Sequence record: NC_102605.1
DNA: 50,633 nucleotides
Direction: 5' to 3' (one strand)
Source: a phage
Shown: in pieces, positions 5,898 to 50,633 of the stretch
Position numbering within the stretch: the first letter of the stretch is position 1
Layout: each line of letters starts with the position of its first letter
Program-made: the position numbers and the translations under genes
Notes under the pieces: model-generated
What the model saw: the letters and a program-made list of their open reading frames with translations, nothing else
Database searches by the model: none
What the model was told of the DNA's origin: nothing

Positions 5898-7478
5898 ATG
5901 TTTGACTTTGACACCAACAAATTGACACCTCAACAAGTTATAGCCATTGCAGAATCGCAGGGAACATCGCCGCTTCGCGTTGCTATTCAGTCGAACGGCT
6001 ACCGCCAATCGTCCAGCTTTTGGGAGCCTGTGAAGGATATCAACGGCGCTAATGACCGTTATCCTGTGATCTCTTTGGGTAATGATGTTGATGTTGTGGG
6101 TAAACTGTCACGTAGCATTGCTCAATCTGTTCAATTTCCTGAATCATCGGCCTATATGCATTTCATTGGTTGCGTTTCCGCCGCTATGGTTGGACGCTTC
6201 CAGGTTGAGTACCACGGCACTGAACAACCAACGGCGCTTTATGTTGTAACCAGTCAGCCGCCATCAACTGGTAAATCAGCAATCAACAGCCTGGCTATTG
6301 CGCCAATGGTCTGTGAAGTTGAGCGCATCAACGAACAACGCAAGAAAGAGCGAAAGAAGATCGCAGCGAAATTAAAAGGCGTTGAAAAGGAATTGAAAGC
6401 TGAACGTTCCGGCACTGAGTTAGCGGCGTTGTTTGAGGAAAAGGAGGAATTAGAGGAAAAGTTAGAAAAAATGTGCGATATCGTTTTTCCGGTATCAGAC
6501 ACCACGCCGGAAGGGTTAGCAAAGATCAACAATCGCCAGGGTAACTTTGCTGTTATTTCCGATGAAGCAACAAGCATCAACAGCTTACTCGGATTGACTT
6601 ACGCTAATAGTGATCGCAAGACTAACAGCGAATTGGTTCTAAAAGCATGGGACGCAGGACACGTTTCAATAGCTCGCGCCAATTCTGAAAACAATATGAG
6701 TTTTGTTGCGTTGGGCTGCATGAGCGTAATTGCCCAGGATGAAACGATAAAAGGGATCATGGATGCAGGGGCGCGGGGTATCGGTGTTAGTGAACGTTTC
6801 TTGCTTGTGCGTGAAAAAACAATGTTAGGCGAGCGTGTATTTATTGATGAAAATGGTGATCTTGATTACACGCCAGTTGATAAAGAATTAAAGGCGCAAT
6901 ATTTCCAGTTGATTCATAACATCATGACTGAACAAAATGTTGTATTGAAGCCGTCACGTTCTGCAATGCGTGTTCTTAATATTGCTCGCCAGCAATTAGA
7001 GCCAGATTTAGCAGACGGCGGAAAATATTCACATACAATGTTGCGTGGTGCTTTGGGTAAAATGGATAAACAAGTGATTCGTATTGCGTCAGTATTGCAC
7101 ACGATCCGCAATTGGTTTAATCCAAACGGTACGCCGCAAAAGTCGCGAGAAATTGAAGTTGAGACAATGCAAGAGGCTTTGGTGATGTTCAGCGAATTAA
7201 GCAAAACATATATTAACGCCGCGAATGCTTCCGGTCACGCTGGCGATGATGCCGAAATGAGCAAGTTAATTGAAATCATCATTAAGATCTCACGTCAAAA
7301 TAAAGGCGTTACCAATGCAAGAGCGATATATGAAAGTGCGCGTAAGGTTAAGCCGTTTACAGGTCAATCAGGCGTTATGAAACGAATTGAGGAACAATTA
7401 TTGCCAATGCTTGAAGAAAAGAATTATGTTTGCAGCGTTGGTAAATTTGTTTATGTCAATCCTGCGTTAATGGGGTAA
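5898..7478 (+). CDS. P-loop NTPase-like protein of unknown function, possibly DUF3987/replication-associated (526 aa)
   Basis: Walker A-like PPSTGKS, Walker B-like VISDE, charged coiled-coil KKERKK...EELEEKLEK; AAGGAGA RBS. Confidence 0.45.
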   Translation: MFDFDTNKLTPQQVIAIAESQGTSPLRVAIQSNGYRQSSSFWEPVKDINGANDRYPVISLGNDVDVVGKLSRSIAQSVQFPESSAYMHFIGCVSAAMVGRFQVEYHGTEQPTALYVVTSQPPSTGKSAINSLAIAPMVCEVERINEQRKKERKKIAAKLKGVEKELKAERSGTELAALFEEKEELEEKLEKMCDIVFPVSDTTPEGLAKINNRQGNFAVISDEATSINSLLGLTYANSDRKTNSELVLKAWDAGHVSIARANSENNMSFVALGCMSVIAQDETIKGIMDAGARGIGVSERFLLVREKTMLGERVFIDENGDLDYTPVDKELKAQYFQLIHNIMTEQNVVLKPSRSAMRVLNIARQQLEPDLADGGKYSHTMLRGALGKMDKQVIRIASVLHTIRNWFNPNGTPQKSREIEVETMQEALVMFSELSKTYINAANASGHAGDDAEMSKLIEIIIKISRQNKGVTNARAIYESARKVKPFTGQSGVMKRIEEQLLPMLEEKNYVCSVGKFVYVNPALMG

Positions 7479-10825: not shown

Positions 10826-10883
10826 TTTACAAATCCTCGTTTCGTTTCGTTGAAATGATTATGCCCCACATAAGCGGGGCCTT

Positions 10884-10904
10884 TTTAACAAAAAGTGCTA
10901 TTTA
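10884..10904 (-). promoter_or_regulatory. Dyad-motif cassette (minus orientation)
   Basis: Reverse complement aaatagcactttttgttaaaa; hairpin gcccc/ggggc; cataat; motif TAG is the stop of the upstream gene. Confidence 0.6.
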
Positions 10905-12240: not shown

Positions 12241-12261
12241 TTTTAACAAAAAGTGCTATTT
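12241..12261 (-). promoter_or_regulatory. Dyad-motif cassette (minus orientation)
   Basis: Reverse complement of the motif; hairpin ggcgca/tgcgcc; cataat; leader catcagaacgaaacggaga. Confidence 0.6.
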
Positions 12262-20098: not shown

Positions 20099-20389
20099 TT
20101 AATGCTTTTCTTCGTTCTCGTTGTGATAATCAATCAAATTCTGGATCATGATTTCACTTGCCTGATTAATCATCTTGCGGTGTTCTTCGTTATTTTCCAT
20201 TTGAAGAACCGTTAATACAACGTTATCAATCGAATATGCAACCTTGCGAACATATTCAAGAGTTTCAGGTGATTCGCTTGGATCAATTACGCGCAAGAAC
20301 TGGCGTTGCATAATTCCTAATGCGTTTACAAATCCGCCTACGTGATCGCGCACATCTTGAATGTCTTGCTCATTGAATTGCTGTTCCAT
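20099..20389 (-). CDS. Hypothetical acidic protein (~96 aa)
   Basis: ORF track 20099..20431; internal ATG after GAGAGGA; own cassette upstream. Confidence 0.5.
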   Translation of the reverse strand: MEQQFNEQDIQDVRDHVGGFVNALGIMQRQFLRVIDPSESPETLEYVRKVAYSIDNVVLTVLQMENNEEHRKMINQASEIMIQNLIDYHNENEEKH

Positions 20390-20445
20390 TTTTATTTCCT
20401 CTCTCGTTGGTTGATGCGTGTAGTATAACACGCATCGAATGGCAG

Positions 20446-20466
20446 TTTTAGCAAAAAGTGCTATTT
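20446..20466 (-). promoter_or_regulatory. Dyad-motif cassette (minus orientation)
   Basis: Reverse complement aaatagcactttttgctaaaa; hairpin gatgcgtg/cacgcatc with tatact in the loop. Confidence 0.6.
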
Positions 20467-21520
20467 ATAAAAAACCTTTGTATTGACGACGAACCCAATC
20501 AGGTGTTTGCAGGTCAATTTCCGGCTCTCCGTTTGCGTATGAAGGCCAACTGTCATTTGCCTGGCATTCTGCAAACTGGTTTATCACACTCATGTATTGA
20601 AGTCGTCCGATCTTCAATTGTTCATCCGTCATGCGGTATGCAATCGGTAAATAAGGCTCTTTCTTTTCCTGCGCCAGCAATCTGACTACTACGGGGCGCG
20701 TTTCTTCTGGATACGCTTTCTTGAATAGGTCATGCTGCAATGCCATTTTCAAATAGTAGCCGTGATTGAATGCCAGCCTTGCAAACTCTGACGGGTTAGC
20801 GCTTGACGTTGTTTTATAATCCGTGATCACAATCGCTTCATCAAATCGCGTTGTTTCATATACCGGATTACCATCACCATCATAGCCGGAAATCACTGTT
20901 GCAAGCACATCCTTGCAAATATCAACATGGTCAATCCTTACTTTTACTTTCACGCCTTTGATAGTGCCGAAAATTGATAGCTCGCGTTGTGCTGTTGGGC
21001 TATTCATGCAAGCGTTGTGTTCCGGTATGTTTTCCAGTACACGGCGCATGGTAACGCAAGCGTCGTAATCTTTAGCCGGAACCAATTCAACCTTATCCGC
21101 TCGTGCCTGGCTCTCTGCGATCATTTCAATCAGCCACTGAACATTAAGATCCTCCCCACAATCAACCATCATTTTTATCAGGTCTGGATAAGTTTTCCCG
21201 CTTGTACCAGTCAGGCCAAAAGATTTTAACTTGCTTGCTAATGCCGTTTGGCTTGTGATCAAGTTTTCGTAATCTTCCGGCGCTGGCGCTCGGCGGTACT
21301 CTTTTGCGAACAACTCACTGCTTTGAAAGTTGGTATGTGACTGCGTACCAAAAACAAGCGCTTTGCTTTCCTCGCGTGGTCTGTATTTCCATGCTGCCGG
21401 ACAAGTTGCAAAGATTTCCGCCAGGCTTGAGCCGCTAACGTATTCAGCCGCCCAACCTTTAGGATCGTGATATTCATCATTGGTTAACTGGTCAAAGGTG
21501 TAAACTTTAAAATCGCTCAT
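20465..21520 (-). CDS. PD-(D/E)XK-family exonuclease, recombination partner of Erf
   Basis: D...E.K nuclease core (ITDYKTT region); ATG after GAGAGGA; directly upstream of erf. Confidence 0.6.
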   Translation of the reverse strand: MSDFKVYTFDQLTNDEYHDPKGWAAEYVSGSSLAEIFATCPAAWKYRPREESKALVFGTQSHTNFQSSELFAKEYRRAPAPEDYENLITSQTALASKLKSFGLTGTSGKTYPDLIKMMVDCGEDLNVQWLIEMIAESQARADKVELVPAKDYDACVTMRRVLENIPEHNACMNSPTAQRELSIFGTIKGVKVKVRIDHVDICKDVLATVISGYDGDGNPVYETTRFDEAIVITDYKTTSSANPSEFARLAFNHGYYLKMALQHDLFKKAYPEETRPVVVRLLAQEKKEPYLPIAYRMTDEQLKIGRLQYMSVINQFAECQANDSWPSYANGEPEIDLQTPDWVRRQYKGFL

Positions 21521-21544
21521 TTGGTCATCCTCTCGTTGGTATGT

Positions 21545-21580
21545 CTGCATTATAGGTCTTTGTTGCATGTAGTCAATACC
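21545..21580 (-). promoter_or_regulatory. Sigma70-type promoter TTGACT-16-TATAAT for the recombination operon
   Basis: Plus strand shows agtcaa and attata with a 16-bp spacer; homologous to the promoter at 105-140. Confidence 0.6.
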
Positions 21581-21920
21581 CTTTAAGTGTTCTTTTTGTT
21601 TTACATACGTTTATAGCTAGCACTGACAACAAAATAACATCGTAAGTTTATGATTTTACTGATTGTTGTTTTTGTGTTCCATTGTTAACGCATTTACGCC
21701 GCATACCATATATAAATACATACCATGTGATATATAACCATTAACCAATACAAAACACACAACCACCACAAACCATAGAGAACAACAGAAACAAGAAGAA
21801 TACAAATAGATATATATAATAATAATTAAACTCTAAGTGTATGTATTATATAGATATTTAATTTGTTCTTTTTGTTTTCAAGACGTTTTCAATTTTACGC
21901 CGGATTCAGTTGTGAACATC

Positions 21921-21966
21921 GTGGAACAAAAGAAAACAAAATGCCCCGACCGTTAAGCCAGGGCAT
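21921..21966 (-). terminator. Rho-independent terminator at the end of the late operon (after J)
   Basis: 7-bp stem aatgccc/gggcatt followed on the minus strand by ttgttttcttttgtt. Confidence 0.55.
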
Positions 21967-21981
21967 TGATTTACCTCCTTT

Positions 21982-24900
21982 TTATGCTTTGAATAGCAGA
22001 ACCGTTAAGATCGGCACTGCGTCTGCGTGGTTTAGATCTCCTGAATATGTAAGCGTTGTTGCTTGTCCTGCTGGCAACATAATGTAAGCACTACTACCGC
22101 CATGCATTGCAGTTGCTCTAACAGTTGCCAACCTTCCGCCATATGTTGAATCAACCCAAACAGTACCACCGCCCCATGCGCCGCCTGAGTAGGTGTAACC
22201 ATGCAAACCAACATACGGGATCACAAGGTGTCTGTTGTAGTTGACTGCCGGAATATTTACAGAACCCCAAATTGGCAATACAACAGCCTTTGCAACGTCT
22301 CCCTCAATTTTTTCAGCGTAAACAGTACCCCTAAACCATCCATCTTGCGCGTAAACGCTTCCGGTGAATGAACCATATGATGCGTAAACGCCACCCCTTA
22401 CAGTTACCTGGTTAAATTCAGCATAACCATTCTTATTAATCATCCAGCCAGCCGCGCCGCTACTCCAGTTGTTAGAGTTTATCTGATCTGCAATCTGTGC
22501 ATTACCGATAGAACCATTTTTAACAAGTAAGCTATTGATAAACACCTGATTATTTTCAACAACAAACGGCAATGTAAAGGCTCCGCTTTGAGCATTATTG
22601 ATGATCGCAAATCGTCCAGCATCAAACAGGAATTGTGATTTAACTCCGCTACCATCAGCGACAAGAGAAAGCGCCATACCTGCGCTATATTCCTGCCCGT
22701 TGTACCTGATCCCCAACTTAACGCCGTACATCGCACCAACGCTTGTACCGTTAACCCATGAATCAAGTTTCTGGTTAACCGCTGATTGGGTATCACCAAT
22801 TTGAGTTGATAACGCCCTATCCGCTGACGCTCGCGCTTCCGCTTCATTGGTGATTGCCTGGTTAACATCGGTTATCTGCGCTTTGATATCCTGCTTAACC
22901 CCATCAATTTCGCTCTCAAACGTAGCTGTAAGCTGATCAATCCTCTGGCTAATTGTTTCAGTGCTGTTAGCAATTACCTCTCTCAATTCGCTATTTTGAG
23001 CCGTTAATTTCTCGTCAAATTGCGCACTCATTTGAGTGACCTGCGTTACCCTTGCTTCTGTTTCGTCTGCAATGAGTTTCAGCGATTGCAAGAACTCCGC
23101 TTTACGCTTGCCGTTTTCAACTCGCATACGTCGCACATCTTTATCATTCGCCAATGCGTTTTCAATCACTGATTCCGCTGTGCTGTGGATCTTATCATTG
23201 GCCTTTATTGCGTTTTCCTGTAACCACTTATAGCCATCAGAATTTTCAATATCGACCTTAATATGATCCGTGATAATGCTTGTATCGTCGGAAGCCATGC
23301 CGCGCACAAAATCAGTCCAATCAGAAACGTTACCGATTTTGTCAACTGCCCTTGCCTTGTACCAGACAACATGACCCGCTGGCAGTATTGAATGCCAATA
23401 CTCATATTGCGGGAACGGTATTAGCGTTAAGAGCGTTGCTTCATCAACAATAGGATGACCATCAGAACCGTTCGGCGCTTGATGCAACTCAATATATGCC
23501 GTGTCTCCGCTTCCTTCTGGCATACCCCATTTAACGCGAATTCCGAAAACTTCATTATCAGACGCAGTAAGGTTAATTGGCCTTTCCGGTTCGCCAACCT
23601 TGCCAGTTAATCCGGCGCTTACAATGGCTGACCATCCAGACGCTGAACCATTCGCTGCAACAGATCTAACCCTTACGTGATAGTTTCCGGCGTAAATTCC
23701 TTCAACTTCCGTTTCCTTGTTGGCTGTGCGCGGCGTGTTGTTCCAGTTGCCATTGTCTTTTCTCCACTGCATTTCATAAAGGCTTGCATATTCAACCTTA
23801 TCCCATGAAACGTGCATTGTTTCCACGCTCGAGCCCTGGACAACTCGCGAATAAGATTCGATCTTGACGTTTTGCGGCGCTGGCAAAATGTCAGGCTGCA
23901 CGATTGAAGTCGGACGGTCATCAATGTTTACGCCATAATCAATTTCATCGTATTTGTTAGGATCGTATTCAACAGCCGTTATGTTGTAGGTAAATTCTTC
24001 ATCACCGTCACCCTTAGTGATTCCGGTTACAACATATCGTTGCTGTGCAATATCGGTTCGCTCAATTGCAAAAATGGTATCTGGCTGAACGTCAAAGCCA
24101 AATGTCGTGTTTAGCGTTAGCGTTTTACCGTCATCACTTACACGCGCAATGGTTCGACCAACTGGCTTACCATCCGGCTTATTTACCAGAATGCGATCAC
24201 CTGCTCTTGCGTCAACCTTAAACGGCGTGAACACCTGCAACCCGCTAACCTCCATCACGCGACCTGATAGATTCAGCGTTAGAGCGCTTGACCAAAAGTT
24301 ATCCGATACAACAATCACATCGCCTACGGTTGGGATCATACCTTCCAGACCTGTAGCAAAGTTTACCGTTGTGCTCTTGACGTTGGTTTTTAAAATCCAG
24401 CGTCCACGGCGGTTGGCTTCGCTGCGTCGTGTGCATCCAATCGCAGTAATTGACGTGCTGTTATAGCCAAAACGTAACGCCGCCTCCGTTTCGAAAACTC
24501 CCTCAACATCCTGTTGATACATGTTTTGTTCGTCGTCGAAAGTCACGTTGCATTGCGTGTACATGCTTTTTTCGCTGGCAAACGTGTAAGTGAATTCACC
24601 GTTAACCACGTTGTCATTAGTAAAGATGTATGACGCATCGCGAGGCTTATCGATCACGATTGAAAGGCTCTCACCATTCCAAAAGCTCATGCCACGGAAG
24701 ATTGAACAAATATCACGCACAAGCTGATACGCTTCTACCTGGCTCTGGATCACAACGTCGCAAAGATAGCGCGGCTCTGTTCCGCCTTTACTGTCTGGAA
24801 CCATCTGATCGCAATACTGCGCACATTCGTAAATGCTCCATTTATCAAGCGCGATGCCTAACTCTCTTTGATCGAGTCCGTAACGCTGATTGGTAATCAA

Positions 24901-25758
24901 ATCATACAGAACAAAAGCAGGGTTATTACTCCATGCCTTTTTCCAGGTTCCATCCCATGACCCTGAGTAAGTGCGGGAAATAGGATCATAATTTGACGGA
25001 ACATTAATGATTTTCCATTTTTTCTTAATGCTGATATTCGGCAACGCATTAGGGAATAATTCGCTGTCAAACTCAACATATACTAAACCAGTCAGGGGGT
25101 AACGAAATTTAGCGTCTACAACTTCCGCATAGCTTTGCATTTTAATCAGATCCGTTACCCTTGCTGACGTGCTATCTGTCAGGCGACGGACGCGCAATAA
25201 AACACGATCATTGAAAACAGGTAAATCAATTCGGCGGCTTCTGTCGTAACCGCTCATTGTTTTACCTTCAATTACATCATGCAAAACCTCTTTATATTCA
25301 GCACCATCAACAGCCATATCAACAGCATATTCAACGCGAACACCTGTTAGATCTCCGTTATCTTCCTGAGTAACCCCGCGAGGCATTAAAATTTTAATAC
25401 GGATCGCAGAAAGGTTTTTATTGGTAACAGAAATAATATAAGGCGTTGCGGCTGTCAGATCGCGAGCAACTGTAATTTCGCTGGCTGTATCAGTAAACCC
25501 CTGAATATAATCCTGCGTTTGCGTCCCCGGCCTGAATTCTGCCTTAACATTCTGAAAGTTTAGTGAACCATCCTGATTCATAACCGGAACGTCATCAAAA
25601 TATAAATCTTTCAATGAAAAGTCTGGATCAACTTCACCATCAGAAACGGCTAAAAGAATTCTGATCCTGTTAATTGAAATTAGGTTATCTTCCATTTCAA
25701 CAGGTGTATGAGGCTTTGAAGAACCGCCCTTACTTCCAGTTATCATATTTTTGATCAT
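21982..25758 (-). CDS. Central tail fibre / host-specificity protein (lambda J-like, 1258 aa)
   Basis: Size, position after the I-like gene, conserved J-like N-terminal region and FN3-like repeats. Confidence 0.85.
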   Translation of the reverse strand: MIKNMITGSKGGSSKPHTPVEMEDNLISINRIRILLAVSDGEVDPDFSLKDLYFDDVPVMNQDGSLNFQNVKAEFRPGTQTQDYIQGFTDTASEITVARDLTAATPYIISVTNKNLSAIRIKILMPRGVTQEDNGDLTGVRVEYAVDMAVDGAEYKEVLHDVIEGKTMSGYDRSRRIDLPVFNDRVLLRVRRLTDSTSARVTDLIKMQSYAEVVDAKFRYPLTGLVYVEFDSELFPNALPNISIKKKWKIINVPSNYDPISRTYSGSWDGTWKKAWSNNPAFVLYDLITNQRYGLDQRELGIALDKWSIYECAQYCDQMVPDSKGGTEPRYLCDVVIQSQVEAYQLVRDICSIFRGMSFWNGESLSIVIDKPRDASYIFTNDNVVNGEFTYTFASEKSMYTQCNVTFDDEQNMYQQDVEGVFETEAALRFGYNSTSITAIGCTRRSEANRRGRWILKTNVKSTTVNFATGLEGMIPTVGDVIVVSDNFWSSALTLNLSGRVMEVSGLQVFTPFKVDARAGDRILVNKPDGKPVGRTIARVSDDGKTLTLNTTFGFDVQPDTIFAIERTDIAQQRYVVTGITKGDGDEEFTYNITAVEYDPNKYDEIDYGVNIDDRPTSIVQPDILPAPQNVKIESYSRVVQGSSVETMHVSWDKVEYASLYEMQWRKDNGNWNNTPRTANKETEVEGIYAGNYHVRVRSVAANGSASGWSAIVSAGLTGKVGEPERPINLTASDNEVFGIRVKWGMPEGSGDTAYIELHQAPNGSDGHPIVDEATLLTLIPFPQYEYWHSILPAGHVVWYKARAVDKIGNVSDWTDFVRGMASDDTSIITDHIKVDIENSDGYKWLQENAIKANDKIHSTAESVIENALANDKDVRRMRVENGKRKAEFLQSLKLIADETEARVTQVTQMSAQFDEKLTAQNSELREVIANSTETISQRIDQLTATFESEIDGVKQDIKAQITDVNQAITNEAEARASADRALSTQIGDTQSAVNQKLDSWVNGTSVGAMYGVKLGIRYNGQEYSAGMALSLVADGSGVKSQFLFDAGRFAIINNAQSGAFTLPFVVENNQVFINSLLVKNGSIGNAQIADQINSNNWSSGAAGWMINKNGYAEFNQVTVRGGVYASYGSFTGSVYAQDGWFRGTVYAEKIEGDVAKAVVLPIWGSVNIPAVNYNRHLVIPYVGLHGYTYSGGAWGGGTVWVDSTYGGRLATVRATAMHGGSSAYIMLPAGQATTLTYSGDLNHADAVPILTVLLFKA

Positions 25759-28324: not shown

Positions 28325-31233
28325 TAAGCCCTCCCATGAACAAAATTATAAACCTCGCCACCTTGCGAGCATGAACGTTGAATCATTTCGGTGAAAATCA
28401 TCTTAATACCAGTTTCCATACCTTTTGGATCTTGACCGTTGTCAATGTTAACGTTGATATCACCAAATGCAAATTGCGATGCACCGCGATTGATGCCAGC
28501 GCCGCCAGTTGTCACGCTCCCTACTTGACCGCCGTTTGCATAACCTCGCATCATGCGATACAGGTTTTTGGCTCCGATCCTTTGCGTTGCCTCTTTGGTG
28601 AAAACAAACTCACCCTTATGAACCACTCCAGCCGGATCATATTTTCCACCGTCGCCAGTATAACCGCCGCCAGCAAAACCAGCACCGCTTAAAAGGCTCC
28701 CAAGCGTCCAGGTTGAGCCGCCCATCATGCCGGAAATGCTATTGAAGATAACCATCTTTGTGATCATCTGAACAATCAGGCTAATGATCGATTTTGCAAA
28801 GTCTTTGAAGTTTGCTTGTCCAGTAGTCAAAAAATCAGCCATTTGTTGCGATAGGCCGTTTAGCGCCTGGCTCGCAATGTTGCCGATATTATCATACATG
28901 TTCATTGCTTCCTCGCCGTACTCCGCAAAGGCATTTTTAGCGCCAGCTAACCAATCAGCGCGTTTAGCATCTTCCTCTTTATAGCGATTGTCTAATGCAT
29001 CCATCATTGCGGTGAGTTGCGGATCTCCTTCCTTGCCTCCTTTAGCAAGATAATCAGCCTCAACCTTTGCACGTTCCGCCGCTCTTGCTGCTTCACGCTC
29101 GCTTAATCCTCTTGTTTTGGCTAGTGCTTCTGTTGCTGCTTTCTGCTGCTGGATAAACTTGATTGAGCTATCTTGCAACTGATTCAGGCGAGTTTGTGCA
29201 ACAATCTGATCGCCTAAAATAGCTTTTTGTTCAGCCATCGCCAGGATCTTATCTTTGTTGGCTAAAATGCTTTTTTCTTCATCAGTAAGTTGCCGTTTTG
29301 TTGAGGCTTCTTGCAAAATCTGAATTTTAGCTTGTTCAGCCCATAAAGATTTACGTTGCTGGCTTATGGTATCCGTGATCGTCTTGTGCTCTTTCAAAAC
29401 TCTTAATTGAGTTTCTAACGCCAGGATATCACGCTGATATTGTTCTTCCAGCTTATCGCCAGCCGATACATTAACTTTTTCAGCCTTTTGCTTTTTATCG
29501 CGCTTGGCTAATTCCTCGGCTTCCTTCCTGATATTCTCTTTTGTTTTTGTTGCATATTGCTGTTCAACCGCCGCACGATTTTTCATCATGTCAATGTAAC
29601 CCTGCTCGCCTTTTTTGACTCGCTCGTTACGTTCAGCAATTGATTTTAATAGCTCCTTGTTGTTCTCCTTAGCGTTATTGATAATCTTCTGTTGCTGCGA
29701 AATAACAGAATCGCCAACATTATCAAGCCCTGGTATTTTTTGCATCGTTTTTGTTGCCGACACAATAAATTCACCAATGAGAATATCACCCTGATTAAGC
29801 AAATATCGAACTTGCTCAACGGTTCCGGCTACAACGTCAATAATCAGGTTAAGCGCCGCCAGCGTGTGATCCCCAACCCAACCCCATGCATCTGACGCCC
29901 ATTTTTTAATGTTCGTCCACATCTTTTCTAATGGCGTTGCGGAGTCTGCCAGTTTAGCTAATCTCTGATCCATAACATCAGCAAATAATTTTGTCGCCGC
30001 CGTTACTGCTTCCGTTTTGCCTTTCGTTTTCTCCAGGTCTGCAATATAAGTTAACTGCCCTTCACTTAAAAAGTTGAATTGCTCGTTTAGCTCTGCAAGA
30101 CCTTTAACCGGATCGCCAGCAATCTTATTAAAGTAATCGGTTATCTTGTCGCTTGATTCACCCGTTACCGTTGACCACTGAGCGGTAGTCTTTGTGATCG
30201 ATTTAATCTGATCAATCGTGAATTTGCCGGATTTTGCAAGCTCTGTTGCGATGGATCGGATGTTTCCCATCGTCGCATCAGTGCTGTTATTAATGTCCTG
30301 CGCCAGCTTATCGAACTGTGCGCCGCTTGTGCCAGCATATCCACCAGTCAGCACCAACGCCTCTTGCAAGTCACGTTGCGACTTATACGCATCATAACCA
30401 GCCTTAACAAGAGCACCCATTGAAACGGCTAAGGCGGCAAGGCCAACGTTTACCGGATTCAGAAACGACAACAGCGCTTTAAACGTATTACCAACGCCGC
30501 CGAAAGAATCCTTAATCTGTCCACCCTGCTGGATTGCAACCAACCAAACAGGCATACCGGAAGCCAGCGACGTTACAACGTCAGTGATCTGAGCCGGAAG
30601 TTGCGCCATAGCTTGCTTGTATTGCCCCGCGCTAATTCCGGTTAACTTCATCTGTTTTTCTTGCGCTTTAAGCTGTGCAATGAATGGCGCGGCCTGAGCA
30701 CTTACGCCAAGTTGCGCCGCTTTCATTTCCAGCAATTCGGCTTTTGTTTTTCCAAGCGCGGCGGCTTGCGATTCCAGATCCGCAAGGAAAGTTTTTCCGG
30801 CTAACGCTGCTTTCTCTTTGGCTTTTGATTCCTCAAGTGCTGCGCGGCCTTCTTCCGTTAACGCCTTTTTATTACGCTCCAGCTTACTGATCTGAGTTTC
30901 CAGCATACTCCCCAACTGGAAAAACGTTTCATCGGGAACAATGCCCTTTTGCCATAGCTTATCAAGATCACTTGCGGCCTGAGATAGCTTGCGCATTTTC
31001 GCCGCTGTCGGATCAACAGTGTCCTGAATGCGTTTAAATTCACGGCTCTGTTTCGCCAATTCATCAGCTAATTGTTTTGCTCTTTGCTTTGCAATTTCTT
31101 CCTCATTAACAAAGCTCTCAACGCCTTTCTTTGCTTCGTCGTTTGCTTTTTTAAAGTCCTGCAATGACTTTACAGCCCTGTTTAACTGCTCGACGTTAAC
31201 GCCAAGTGTTAAACCTGCAAATTGTTCAGCCAT
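28324..31233 (-). CDS. Tail tape measure protein
   Basis: About 970 aa, extensively alpha-helical/coiled-coil, Gly-rich hydrophobic C-terminal segment; GAGGG RBS. Confidence 0.85.
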   Translation of the reverse strand: MAEQFAGLTLGVNVEQLNRAVKSLQDFKKANDEAKKGVESFVNEEEIAKQRAKQLADELAKQSREFKRIQDTVDPTAAKMRKLSQAASDLDKLWQKGIVPDETFFQLGSMLETQISKLERNKKALTEEGRAALEESKAKEKAALAGKTFLADLESQAAALGKTKAELLEMKAAQLGVSAQAAPFIAQLKAQEKQMKLTGISAGQYKQAMAQLPAQITDVVTSLASGMPVWLVAIQQGGQIKDSFGGVGNTFKALLSFLNPVNVGLAALAVSMGALVKAGYDAYKSQRDLQEALVLTGGYAGTSGAQFDKLAQDINNSTDATMGNIRSIATELAKSGKFTIDQIKSITKTTAQWSTVTGESSDKITDYFNKIAGDPVKGLAELNEQFNFLSEGQLTYIADLEKTKGKTEAVTAATKLFADVMDQRLAKLADSATPLEKMWTNIKKWASDAWGWVGDHTLAALNLIIDVVAGTVEQVRYLLNQGDILIGEFIVSATKTMQKIPGLDNVGDSVISQQQKIINNAKENNKELLKSIAERNERVKKGEQGYIDMMKNRAAVEQQYATKTKENIRKEAEELAKRDKKQKAEKVNVSAGDKLEEQYQRDILALETQLRVLKEHKTITDTISQQRKSLWAEQAKIQILQEASTKRQLTDEEKSILANKDKILAMAEQKAILGDQIVAQTRLNQLQDSSIKFIQQQKAATEALAKTRGLSEREAARAAERAKVEADYLAKGGKEGDPQLTAMMDALDNRYKEEDAKRADWLAGAKNAFAEYGEEAMNMYDNIGNIASQALNGLSQQMADFLTTGQANFKDFAKSIISLIVQMITKMVIFNSISGMMGGSTWTLGSLLSGAGFAGGGYTGDGGKYDPAGVVHKGEFVFTKEATQRIGAKNLYRMMRGYANGGQVGSVTTGGAGINRGASQFAFGDINVNIDNGQDPKGMETGIKMIFTEMIQRSCSQGGEVYNFVHGRA

Positions 31234-44004: not shown

Positions 44005-44025
44005 TTTTAACAAAAAGTGCTATTT
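44005..44025 (-). promoter_or_regulatory. Dyad-motif cassette (minus orientation)
   Basis: Reverse complement aaatagcactttttgttaaaa; motif TAG is the stop of the upstream gene. Confidence 0.55.
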
Positions 44026-47450: not shown

Positions 47451-47558
47451 CATTACCCCACAAATTCGATGACAATGTAAGCGATGCCAGCCAGCACAAC
47501 GGTAGCGAGCACAATCATAGAGCCGTATTTAAGAAACTGCTTAATTGATTCTTTTGAC
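47451..47558 (-). CDS. Membrane micropeptide (~35 aa), not in ORF track
   Basis: ATG after AGAGAGGA RBS; single predicted TMD. Confidence 0.3.
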
Positions 47559-47618
47559 ATTTTTCTATCCTCTCTTGTTGGTTGATGCGGTCATTGTACC
47601 AATCAGCACACATGACCG

Positions 47619-50121: not shown

Positions 50122-50595
50122 TTATTCATCCTCATTGTTGACAAAGTTGATTTTCACAAGTGCATGAAGCTCTTGCATTACTTTTGCTACGGTTGCGTAT
50201 TCTTCCGGCGCATAGTTTGCCAGGTTTGGCGATAGCGTCATAAAGCGCTCTGCTGCCTTGTTCACTGCCTGGCGCTTGTGCCGTTCAACGTCAGCCTTGC
50301 TATAAACCGTTTTACGTTTCTCATGAGTGAGTGTGATCTTGAATACTTCCATGCCGAAAAGGTTACTTTCGTCATCGTCGCACATTGTCTTTTTGATCTT
50401 GATAGTGCCAACCATTTTTACTTCCGGCACTCGTGACATAGTGGTGCGCACGTATGAAGCCGGATTATCAGATGATTTCTTTCCGGCTAATTCAGTAGCC
50501 AGGTAGCCAGTCGGGATCACGATTTCGGTTTTCTCACCACTGGCGAGCGCCTTTGCTGCCTCGCGTAGTTTTTCGGTAAAGCTCATGTTTTCCAT
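50122..50595 (-). CDS. Hypothetical protein (~157 aa), first gene of the leftward array driven by the 105-140 promoter
   Basis: Track 50122..50628; ATG after AGGAGA RBS (MENMSF...); 5' end duplicated at 1-77. Confidence 0.55.
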   Translation of the reverse strand: MENMSFTEKLREAAKALASGEKTEIVIPTGYLATELAGKKSSDNPASYVRTTMSRVPEVKMVGTIKIKKTMCDDDESNLFGMEVFKITLTHEKRKTVYSKADVERHKRQAVNKAAERFMTLSPNLANYAPEEYATVAKVMQELHALVKINFVNNEDE

Positions 50596-50633
50596 ATGGT
50601 TTCTCCTGATTGGTTTTGATGTGTGCATTATGC
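50519..50633. repeat. Second copy of the terminal direct repeat (identical to 1-115)
   Basis: Exact identity with 1-115. Confidence 0.9.

Follow-up and report, generated by a model that had tools for sequence, protein, structure and literature searches.

The phage sequence NC_102605.1 holds a non-coding gap of 461 bp (21521-21981) between the stop codon of a J-like tail-tip gene and the ATG of a recE-like exonuclease gene, and the question raised by this locus is what so long a stretch does there. By the window we mean the whole stretch of DNA that was analysed, a complete phage genome of 50,633 bases. It belongs to the genus Tlsvirus (Drexlerviridae, Tempevirinae), in which about 50 genomes, including TLS, Stevie, YSP2, and DanielBernoulli, are 92-97% identical around the J/recE gap. 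Relative to the TLS map the window is reverse-complemented, and all features of the gap therefore lie on the minus strand. The gap separates two transcription units, the late (J) operon and the recE/Erf/SSB operon, and we are highly confident that it comprises a terminator, a promoter, and a real, conserved, and duplicated module. The terminator and the promoter are real but not new, since they had been predicted in TLS as T50 and P51 (PMC11447400), and together with a small open reading frame (mini-ORF) they are, on their own, ordinary. For the duplicated module, which is found family-wide, we could not find a description in the literature retrieved; it is either an origin-like or an enhancer-like cis-element.

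A duplicated module upstream of recE

The module consists of about 350 bp of very AT-rich, non-coding DNA between the terminator and the promoter. Read in the sense of recE, it begins with a 5' box set (21912-21931) in which TTTTGTT, conserved at 75% or more in 19 sequences, is followed by the 16-mer GTTCCACGATGTTCAC (21927-21912), composed of two TGTTC units 10 bp apart. Next come the upstream copy of a box, GGCGTAAA (21894-21901), the upstream copy of an A-rich 15-mer, AAAACAAAAAGAACA (21864-21878), and a (TA)n-rich core with 12% G+C (21804-21863), which lies about 255 bp upstream of the -35 hexamer and carries the conserved sequence TATATAT.TATTTGT (21818-21802). The core is followed by a G/T-rich, nearly C-free spacer (21701-21803) that is variable in sequence and length, with 30-nt indels in two of the relatives (L023 and L033), and by a 3' box set (21674-21700). 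This second set is formed by another GGCGTAAA (21700-21693) and by GTTAACAATGGAACAC (21689-21674), which is GTGAACA...GGAACA in relatives, and has GAACA-type units that point opposite to those of the 5' set. An IHF-consensus-like site, a second TTTTGTT, a promoter-proximal copy of AAAACAAAAAGAACA, and the promoter complete the order. GAACA/TGTTC units occur 6 and 5 times in the two modules, whereas 460 nt of the genome hold 1.15 on average and 6 at most. At the places equivalent to the boxes, T1 and Rtp carry analogous short repeats, namely tandem TTACGCC, three copies of CGATTAACA, GTGTAACA, and CCGCGGAAA; variants of the upstream GGCGTAAA box in particular, at the same relative place, are TTACGCC repeats in both phages and CCGCGGAAA in Rtp.

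Two features of composition were seen in passing. On the sense strand 21700-21800 is nearly free of C, and therefore the antisense strand is C-rich and G-poor (rut-like). GATC is absent from the 461-bp gap, the genome mean being 2.6 per 460 nt (289 sites in total).

At its downstream end the module abuts the promoter of the recE-erf-ssb operon (21549-21576), with a -35 hexamer TTGACT (21576-21571), a 16-bp spacer, and a -10 hexamer TATAAT (21554-21549). By hexamers and spacer, TTGACT-16-TATAAT is a convincing candidate for a near-consensus sigma-70 promoter: it matches the consensus at 11 of 12 positions and is the sole 11/12 site that a promoter scan found in 20300-22300. The recE transcription start is predicted near 21542. 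All 29 non-redundant upstream sequences, among them the T1-like ones, share the promoter core, TATTGACTA ... TA.AATGCA. In TLS, P51 (ttgact...ataat) was predicted in silico upstream of the exonuclease gene (PMC11447400, Suppl. Table S1). The original prediction of a canonical promoter for an exonuclease/Erf/SSB module is supported by the 11/12 match and by Pfam, which assigned the PD-(D/E)XK/DUF3799 and ERF families to the genes.

Upstream of the -35 hexamer, the promoter-proximal AAAACAAAAAGAACA (21588-21602), an exact repeat of the upstream copy, would lie at about -62 to -48 as an UP-element-like tract; it is conserved as AACA(A/G)AAAA.AACA in 19 sequences and, although A-rich, differs from the canonical UP consensus. 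Further upstream, AATCATAAACTTA (21643-21655) matches the IHF pattern WATCAWNNNNTTR. A site of this kind, recognized at the level of the pattern, is found 73-79 nt upstream of the -35 hexamer in 10 of 15 copy-2 sequences; it varies at four central bases (NNNN) between conserved flanks, ATCA and CTTA. Its position is conserved in the Tempevirinae, and it is absent from the T1-like copies. As the pattern occurs genome-wide at chance level (9 found, 8.4 expected), only its fixed position argues for a function.

A paralogous copy of the module, copy 1, is located at 109-483 on the minus strand, with the 16-mer at 483-468, a TA core at 417-358, and a promoter with TTGACT at 137-132 and CATAAT at 114-109. 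This promoter, TTGACT-17-CATAAT, matches the consensus at 10 of 12 positions and precedes a DUF7174 gene starting at 77 (equivalent to 50595), the first gene of a long leftward unit. Local alignment of copy 1 with copy 2 gave a score of 59, compared with 22.6 +/- 2.6 for dinucleotide shuffles (z = 14), and z remained at 8.8 against shuffles of 30-nt blocks. With nhmmer, a profile to which copy-2 orthologues from other phages alone had contributed recovered copy 1 (483-245, E = 1.2e-13). The copies are collinear (about 109-483 and 21549-21927), with the 16-mer 409 nt (copy 1) and 410 nt (copy 2) before the respective start codons, and they are about 55-60% identical outside this box, which is identical at 16 of 16 positions. 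Both the AT-rich homology block and the conserved 16-mer that had been noticed from the sequence alone are thus present. As for the label "duplicated promoter region" given to the gap, the second copy is genuine, but the most conserved and unusual part is the (TA)n core with its boxes, not the promoter.

Tempevirinae, Tunavirinae, Braunvirinae, and Hicfunavirus all have the module at these two positions in the genome, and the divergent intergenic region that holds copy 1 is present, with the module, in TLS, Stevie, DanielBernoulli, F115, atuna, damhaus, T1, and Rtp. When 160-nt core regions were compared across the Tempevirinae genera, copy 1 grouped with copy 1 and copy 2 with copy 2; because like copies group across genera, the duplication is older than the Tempevirinae genera. 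Concerted evolution of the copies was considered and not seen in the Tempevirinae, where they group by position; it was seen in Rtp, where the two copies resemble each other far more closely than they resemble those of other phages. Beyond the gap, Changchunvirus, Warwickvirus, Hicfunavirus, and T1 carry, in place of J, a divergent cor-like or lipoprotein gene, driven by a promoter with a 21-nt repeat (described below), yet they retain the block of about 430 bp upstream of recE. Copy 2 thus goes with recE and not with J.

A scan of duplex stability by a nearest-neighbour model put the two cores below all other windows of 60, 100, and 200 bp in the genome (z = 4.3-5.1), the next site reaching about 3.0-3.2, and the copy-2 core is the least stable 60-bp duplex of all (dG -56.4, z = 5.1). 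Likewise in TLS, T1, and Rtp, members of three subfamilies, no 60- or 100-bp windows are less stable than those at these two positions. Of 45 loci of 4 kb from IMG/VR, found through RecE with 62-100% amino-acid identity, 44 have their least stable 60-mer centred 290-349 nt upstream of the recE ATG. Low stability is kept even though sequence identity is near background (0.43 between T1 and the window, with a null of 0.33). The core is AT-rich and of unusually low duplex stability, the two properties by which an unwinding element is recognized.

Sequence constraint on the module is uneven. With gaps penalised, the module is 90-94% identical in the close relative L016, compared with 67% at the four-fold degenerate sites of recE, which amounts to about five-fold fewer changes. 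In other genera, on the same scoring, its identity (0.49-0.62) is close to that of the four-fold sites (0.42-0.62), and constraint is patchy. The stronger claim that the module is as conserved as the recE coding sequence was discarded, having been inflated by lenient gap scoring; a stricter comparison leaves close relatives and patches only. Since distant genera are near four-fold-site identity and clear constraint is seen in the close relative only, selection acts on patches and on composition, not on the whole 350 bp.

A candidate replication origin and its rivals

The reading that we prefer is that the module is a promoter-coupled DNA-unwinding element and one of two replication origins, to which we assign a probability of roughly 0.4. 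It would most likely be one of two origins, or else the arrangement would be one origin plus a helper copy. A tentative extension, which we hold a little more loosely, is that T1-like phages replicate from both modules, arranged as a pair of sites in the manner of P4 ori/crr or SPP1 oriL/oriR. The (TA)n core would be the unwinding element, flanked by lineage-specific initiator-binding boxes, and its opening would be aided by IHF bending and by negative supercoiling behind RNA polymerase leaving the adjacent strong promoter, a step that would follow from the twin-domain model.

Candidates for trans-acting factors would come from the replication genes of the phage, which encode a primase, an SF2 helicase, a 202-aa helix-turn-helix (HTH) protein, and a DUF3987 protein called "DNA helicase" (5898-7478, plus strand). 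The AlphaFold model of the latter (pLDDT 89, pTM 0.87) best matches eukaryotic and archaeal MCM subunits (Foldseek E 1e-5 to 1e-3, with TM scores of only 0.33-0.37) and, more weakly, Orc1/Cdc6, and its C-terminus (about residues 450-520) is modelled in the helix-strand-helix-helix-strand-strand order typical of winged helices. The phage MCM-like helicase, the primase, and the HTH protein might all take part, and the boxes might be recognized by the DUF3987 helicase, with its winged-helix-like C-terminal domain, or by the HTH protein. A sequence search of the helicase and the primase against the PDB gave no matches, and no link between DUF3987 and origins could be confirmed in the literature.

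An origin is favoured by the extreme and conserved duplex instability, by the presence of box sets on both sides of the core, and by the lineage specificity of the box sequences. It is also favoured by the variable distance between core and promoter, which is about 250-290 bp in most genomes, about 205 bp in T1 copy 1, and only about 85 bp in Rtp copy 2 (to the best promoter candidate, picked by eye), and by a third sigma-70 promoter, P57, that has no module. Copy 1, moreover, lies at the point of transcription divergence and at the cumulative GC-skew minimum. In TLS no replication origin was recognized, and only three intergenic sigma-70 promoters were predicted (PMC11447400).

Several observations weigh against an origin. 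GC skew follows the direction of transcription only, and at copy 2 it gives no independent origin signal. As an iteron, TGTTCAC is not enriched (8 found genome-wide, 6.9 expected), TTACGC/GGCGTAA boxes are only marginally enriched in the modules (p = 0.005-0.5), and the best DnaA-box-like 9-mers, searched by eye without a formal scan, match at 7 of 9 positions, none of them well. No binding protein was identified for the boxes, the MCM-like assignment comes with the low TM scores given above, and constraint in other genera is patchy. The literature found holds no replication, origin, transcriptome, or start-site data for T1-like phages. Finally, both copies are always co-oriented with a sigma-70 promoter, and in most genomes the core keeps to the distance of about 250-290 bp from it, all of which fits a promoter-upstream element equally well.

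Such an element would be an upstream activating region, that is, a long enhancer for two of the few canonical promoters of host RNA polymerase (immediate-early), and we consider this, the main rival, possible but on the unlikely side. The orientation just mentioned and the near-equal spacing of the 16-mer from the two ATGs agree with it, as do the resemblance of the two window promoters beyond their hexamers, the fixed position of the IHF-like site in 10 of 15 sequences, and the A-rich UP-like tract adjoining the -35 hexamer. Two of the three predicted intergenic sigma-70 promoters of TLS, P01 and P51, lie downstream of a module, but the third, P57, does without one, in an intergenic gap of only about 90 bp. 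IHF bound at about -107 might bend the DNA, with the core and the A-tracts as extended UP, curved, or supercoil-sensitive DNA, a picture that is doubtful to the same degree; against it, the core is about 290 bp from the start site, far past the usual UP or Fis regions, and the IHF pattern is at chance frequency genome-wide and missing from T1-like copies. Raised open-complex formation at P(recE) and at the copy-1 promoter would be the effect, which we likewise regard as unlikely. Because the distances in Rtp copy 2 and T1 copy 1 differ from the rest, the enhancer geometry is not universal, and a simple enhancer would have no need of conserved boxes flanking the core on each side. The origin and the enhancer are not exclusive of each other, since a strong promoter firing away from the core would favour its opening through negative supercoiling.

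A plain duplicated promoter cassette, in which AT-rich DNA persists by descent and mutational bias and has no further function, is improbable. It would account for the near equality of module and four-fold-site identity in distant genera, for the G/T-rich spacer with its variable sequence and length, and for the weak statistics of box enrichment. It does not sit well with the retention of both copies at both positions in four lineages despite changing neighbours (cor, lipoprotein genes, or J), with extreme low stability retained between T1 and TLS despite sequence divergence, or with the five-fold deficit of substitutions in the close relative. An identical 16-mer within copies that otherwise share about 55-60% of their positions also argues against it, and a 50-kb genome limited by headful packaging pays a price for carrying about 350 bp that do not code.

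The modules as recognition sites of the terminase (TerS), or as otherwise pac-associated sites, are more improbable still. Copy 1 adjoins the deduced pac region and has 10-bp-phased ATCA repeats beside it (565-640), and the records of T1, TLS, and Rtp, which start at pac or close to it, have a TA core at 214-279; however, the record starts may simply follow T1 homology, which would make this coincidence trivial. Copy 2 is 21 kb away and has no phased repeats, and the restriction data for TLS and T1 describe a single pac fragment. Packaging itself probably has its pac/TerS-binding region at 540-735, between copy 1 and the first rightward early promoter. This region holds the ATCA tract phased at about 10 bp (ctcaaatctaatcaaatctaatcaaatcacatcacatcaactcacacatcaatcatcaac), three GTGATC (Dam-site) repeats at 633-665, and two tagaccaaNcggtcta palindromes at about 700-730, and it is within the homologous ATCA tract that the TLS record begins, at its deduced pac (AGATTT).

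Terminator, mini-ORF, and neighbouring features

On the J side of the module lies a convincing candidate for the intrinsic terminator of the late operon (21923-21967), recognized by its structure, its 3' placement, and its conservation. It begins 15 nt past the J stop codon and consists of a hairpin (21967-21940) and a U-rich tract (21939-21923). A terminator scan described the hairpin as a 12-pair stem with 6 G-C pairs and a 4-nt loop, followed by the tail TTGTTTTCTT, also given as UUUUGUUUUCUUUUGUU; its fold of -18.3 kcal/mol is well below that of shuffled sequences (z = -5.1). The terminator is kept in all 10 Tlsviruses compared and is annotated in the Stevie record; T50 of TLS is a predicted terminator, gccctggcttaacggtcggggcattttgttt, of -15.8 kcal/mol (PMC11447400, Suppl. 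Table S1). Two variants of the hairpin among relatives still fold (-13.5 and -15.6 kcal/mol), and no double compensatory change was found among them. A substitution in the Sazh hairpin was considered as compensatory and rejected, as it breaks one pair. The late-operon terminator of the original prediction thus stands, but the T-rich tract is not just its tail: the stretch that serves as the U-tract in Tlsviruses (TTTGTTTTCTTTTGTTCC), like the 5' box set as a whole, also occurs in genera that have no hairpin there. For this reason we conclude that the hairpin was placed beside a pre-existing conserved box.

The terminator is overlapped by the mini-ORF, MPWLNGRGILFSFVPRCSQLNPA (21895-21966), whose ATG at 21966 is preceded at 7 nt by the Shine-Dalgarno-like sequence AAGGAGG (21974-21980). 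The ribosome-binding site and the run of 23 codons through the hairpin are as had been claimed for it, but the frame is not conserved as coding sequence. Of 10 Tlsviruses, the window included, seven have the 23 codons; in Stevie and phage 36 (L010 and L012) a change of CGA to TGA places a stop at codon 16 and leaves 15 codons, and in Sazh (L011) a change of TGG to TAG places it at codon 3 and leaves two. That translation of the mini-ORF serves a function is therefore very unlikely, whether through a peptide or through a switch in which ribosomes would melt the hairpin and permit read-through into recE. A perfect AAGGAGG directly after the J stop, the conservation of AAGGAGG with the ATG in nine of the 10 (L016 has AATGAGG), and the location of the ATG within the 5' arm of the hairpin could be taken in favour of such a function. 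However, pairing of the ATG in that arm explains why it is conserved, the peptide is not conserved, and other genera keep the module and lack the mini-ORF element entirely. Judged by these comparisons, the mini-ORF is not a gene but a by-product of the hairpin sequence that encodes no conserved peptide.

No other product of the block was recognized. Rfam at gathering thresholds gave no matches in the whole window, RNAalifold with 15 sequences found essentially no consensus structure on the two strands (-0.23 and 0.00 kcal/mol), its sole helix being the 6-bp UUUGUU/AACAAA with one compensatory case, and among 15 phages no ORF in the block is conserved in strand, frame, or position. Since there is no conserved ORF, the "hypothetical proteins" annotated in the block in YSP2, LL5, PHB17, and Sephi301i are probably spurious, and since Rfam family and consensus structure are lacking as well, the module most likely acts as DNA and not through a product. 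A non-coding RNA or long structured leader transcribed from the block is scarcely credible: folding of the single sequence (z = -2.1 in sense and -2.95 in antisense) and TATAAT-like hexamers in the core speak for it, but the terminator hairpin supplies much of the low folding energy, no promoter of 9/12 or better lies inside the block, and the Rfam and RNAalifold results stand against it.

The gap is bounded by the J-like tail-tip/host-specificity gene (21982-25758, minus strand; 1258 codons in the ORF list, TAA stop at 21984-21982), which is annotated in relatives as tail fiber or host specificity protein J, and by the recE-like gene of a PD-(D/E)XK exonuclease (20465-21520, minus strand; Pfam DUF3799/PDDEXK_1), with a Shine-Dalgarno sequence GAGAGGA at 21534-21528. 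The genes 3' of recE encode an ERF-family annealing protein, recognized by Pfam, and then a protein whose gene is annotated as ssb in TLS. Homologue annotation and alignment place the recE start at 21520 and not at the in-frame ATG at 21568, and Stevie and the 45 loci agree with this; the longer ORF, which begins at 21568 within the promoter spacer, would overlap the promoter and has no homologue support. The RefSeq record of TLS (L007) annotates the long form (29118..30221), and because Stevie and the alignment favour 21520, this start is probably wrong.

Two short motifs recur elsewhere in the window. The 52-nt stretches 20367-20418 and 47538-47589, which are 77% identical and share the leader motif CAACCAACGAGAGAGG, are the translation starts of two unrelated minus-strand genes, and recE has an upstream version of the motif, ACCAACGAGAGG (21528-21541); this stretch appears to be a conserved context of 5' untranslated region and ribosome-binding site used by several genes. 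The 21-nt repeat aaATAGCACnnnTTGnTAAAA was described in the TLS paper with no function assigned (PMC11447400). It has about 20 sites in the window, for example 736-756, 1246-1266, 2799-2819, 10883-10902, 12241-12260, and 44005-44024, and holds a TAGCA-N5-TGCTA palindrome about 20 nt upstream of a TATGAT/TATAGT-like -10 hexamer; its TTGnTA is too far from that hexamer for a normal -35. The repeat has the look of an operator or an activator site to which a dimeric phage regulator would bind.

Two observations concern the records themselves. The first 115 bases of the window recur exactly at its end as a direct repeat (1-115 and 50519-50633), which, rather than being a biological terminal repeat, most likely arose as an overlap when a circularly permuted genome was assembled. 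Near-identical Tlsvirus or Drexlerviridae deposits carry the names "Streptococcus phage MBBL140," "Campylobacter phage A14a/A119/A136," and "Vibrio phage Vc1," which are probably host mislabels or contaminants.

Comparison with known systems

T1-like phages (Drexlerviridae) are classic coliphages, contaminants of laboratories and industry, and common isolates in therapy and collections. Our analysis provides two concrete candidates for an origin or for early control, cis-elements of about 350 bp that occur across the family and whose cores and boxes are defined. If the origin is confirmed, minimal replicons and phage engineering would be enabled; if the modules are IHF- or supercoil-dependent enhancers, they would explain how infection is launched with only three canonical sigma-70 promoters.

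The closest counterparts are T50 and P51 of TLS, which are orthologous to the terminator and the promoter described here, in a region 94-95% identical to the window. They were reported as in-silico elements only, and the paper does not describe the block of about 350 bp, its paralogue upstream of gp01, its stability, or its conservation (PMC11447400; German et al. 2024). Iteron-type origins of elements with their own primase and helicase-type initiator likewise have boxes on both sides of an AT-rich, easily melted centre. In contrast to them, the boxes in the window are few, heterogeneous, and weakly enriched, there are two copies, and the module is not beside the helicase and primase genes.

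P4, with ori and crr, and SPP1, with oriL and oriR, each have two homologous cis regions kilobases apart, with initiator-binding repeats beside AT-rich DNA. The window resembles them in also having two homologous cis regions kilobases apart. The P4 repeat, putatively TGTTCACC, would resemble the TGTTCAC of the 16-mer; the P4 sequence itself could not be confirmed. Unlike in P4 and SPP1, the primase and the DUF3987 helicase of the window have no sequence match to solved structures, and the modelled fold of the helicase matches MCM.

In the T7 primary origin and in T4 oriF and oriG, a strong promoter is coupled to a downstream AT-rich element, and the transcript primes synthesis. The window also has a predicted strong promoter physically coupled to an AT-rich element, but here the element lies about 250 bp upstream of the promoter, and coupling would therefore run through supercoiling or bending. 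IHF-dependent activation from upstream is known at ilvPG, where supercoil-induced duplex destabilisation is passed to the -10 region, and at lambda pL, and rrnB P1 has an UP/Fis region. By its predicted elements, the locus would share with these promoters an IHF consensus upstream of a sigma-70 promoter, in or beside easily melted AT-rich DNA, and an A-rich tract at the -35 hexamer. It differs from them in that its core is much further upstream (about -290), its block extends over about 350 bp, and it has additional conserved boxes.

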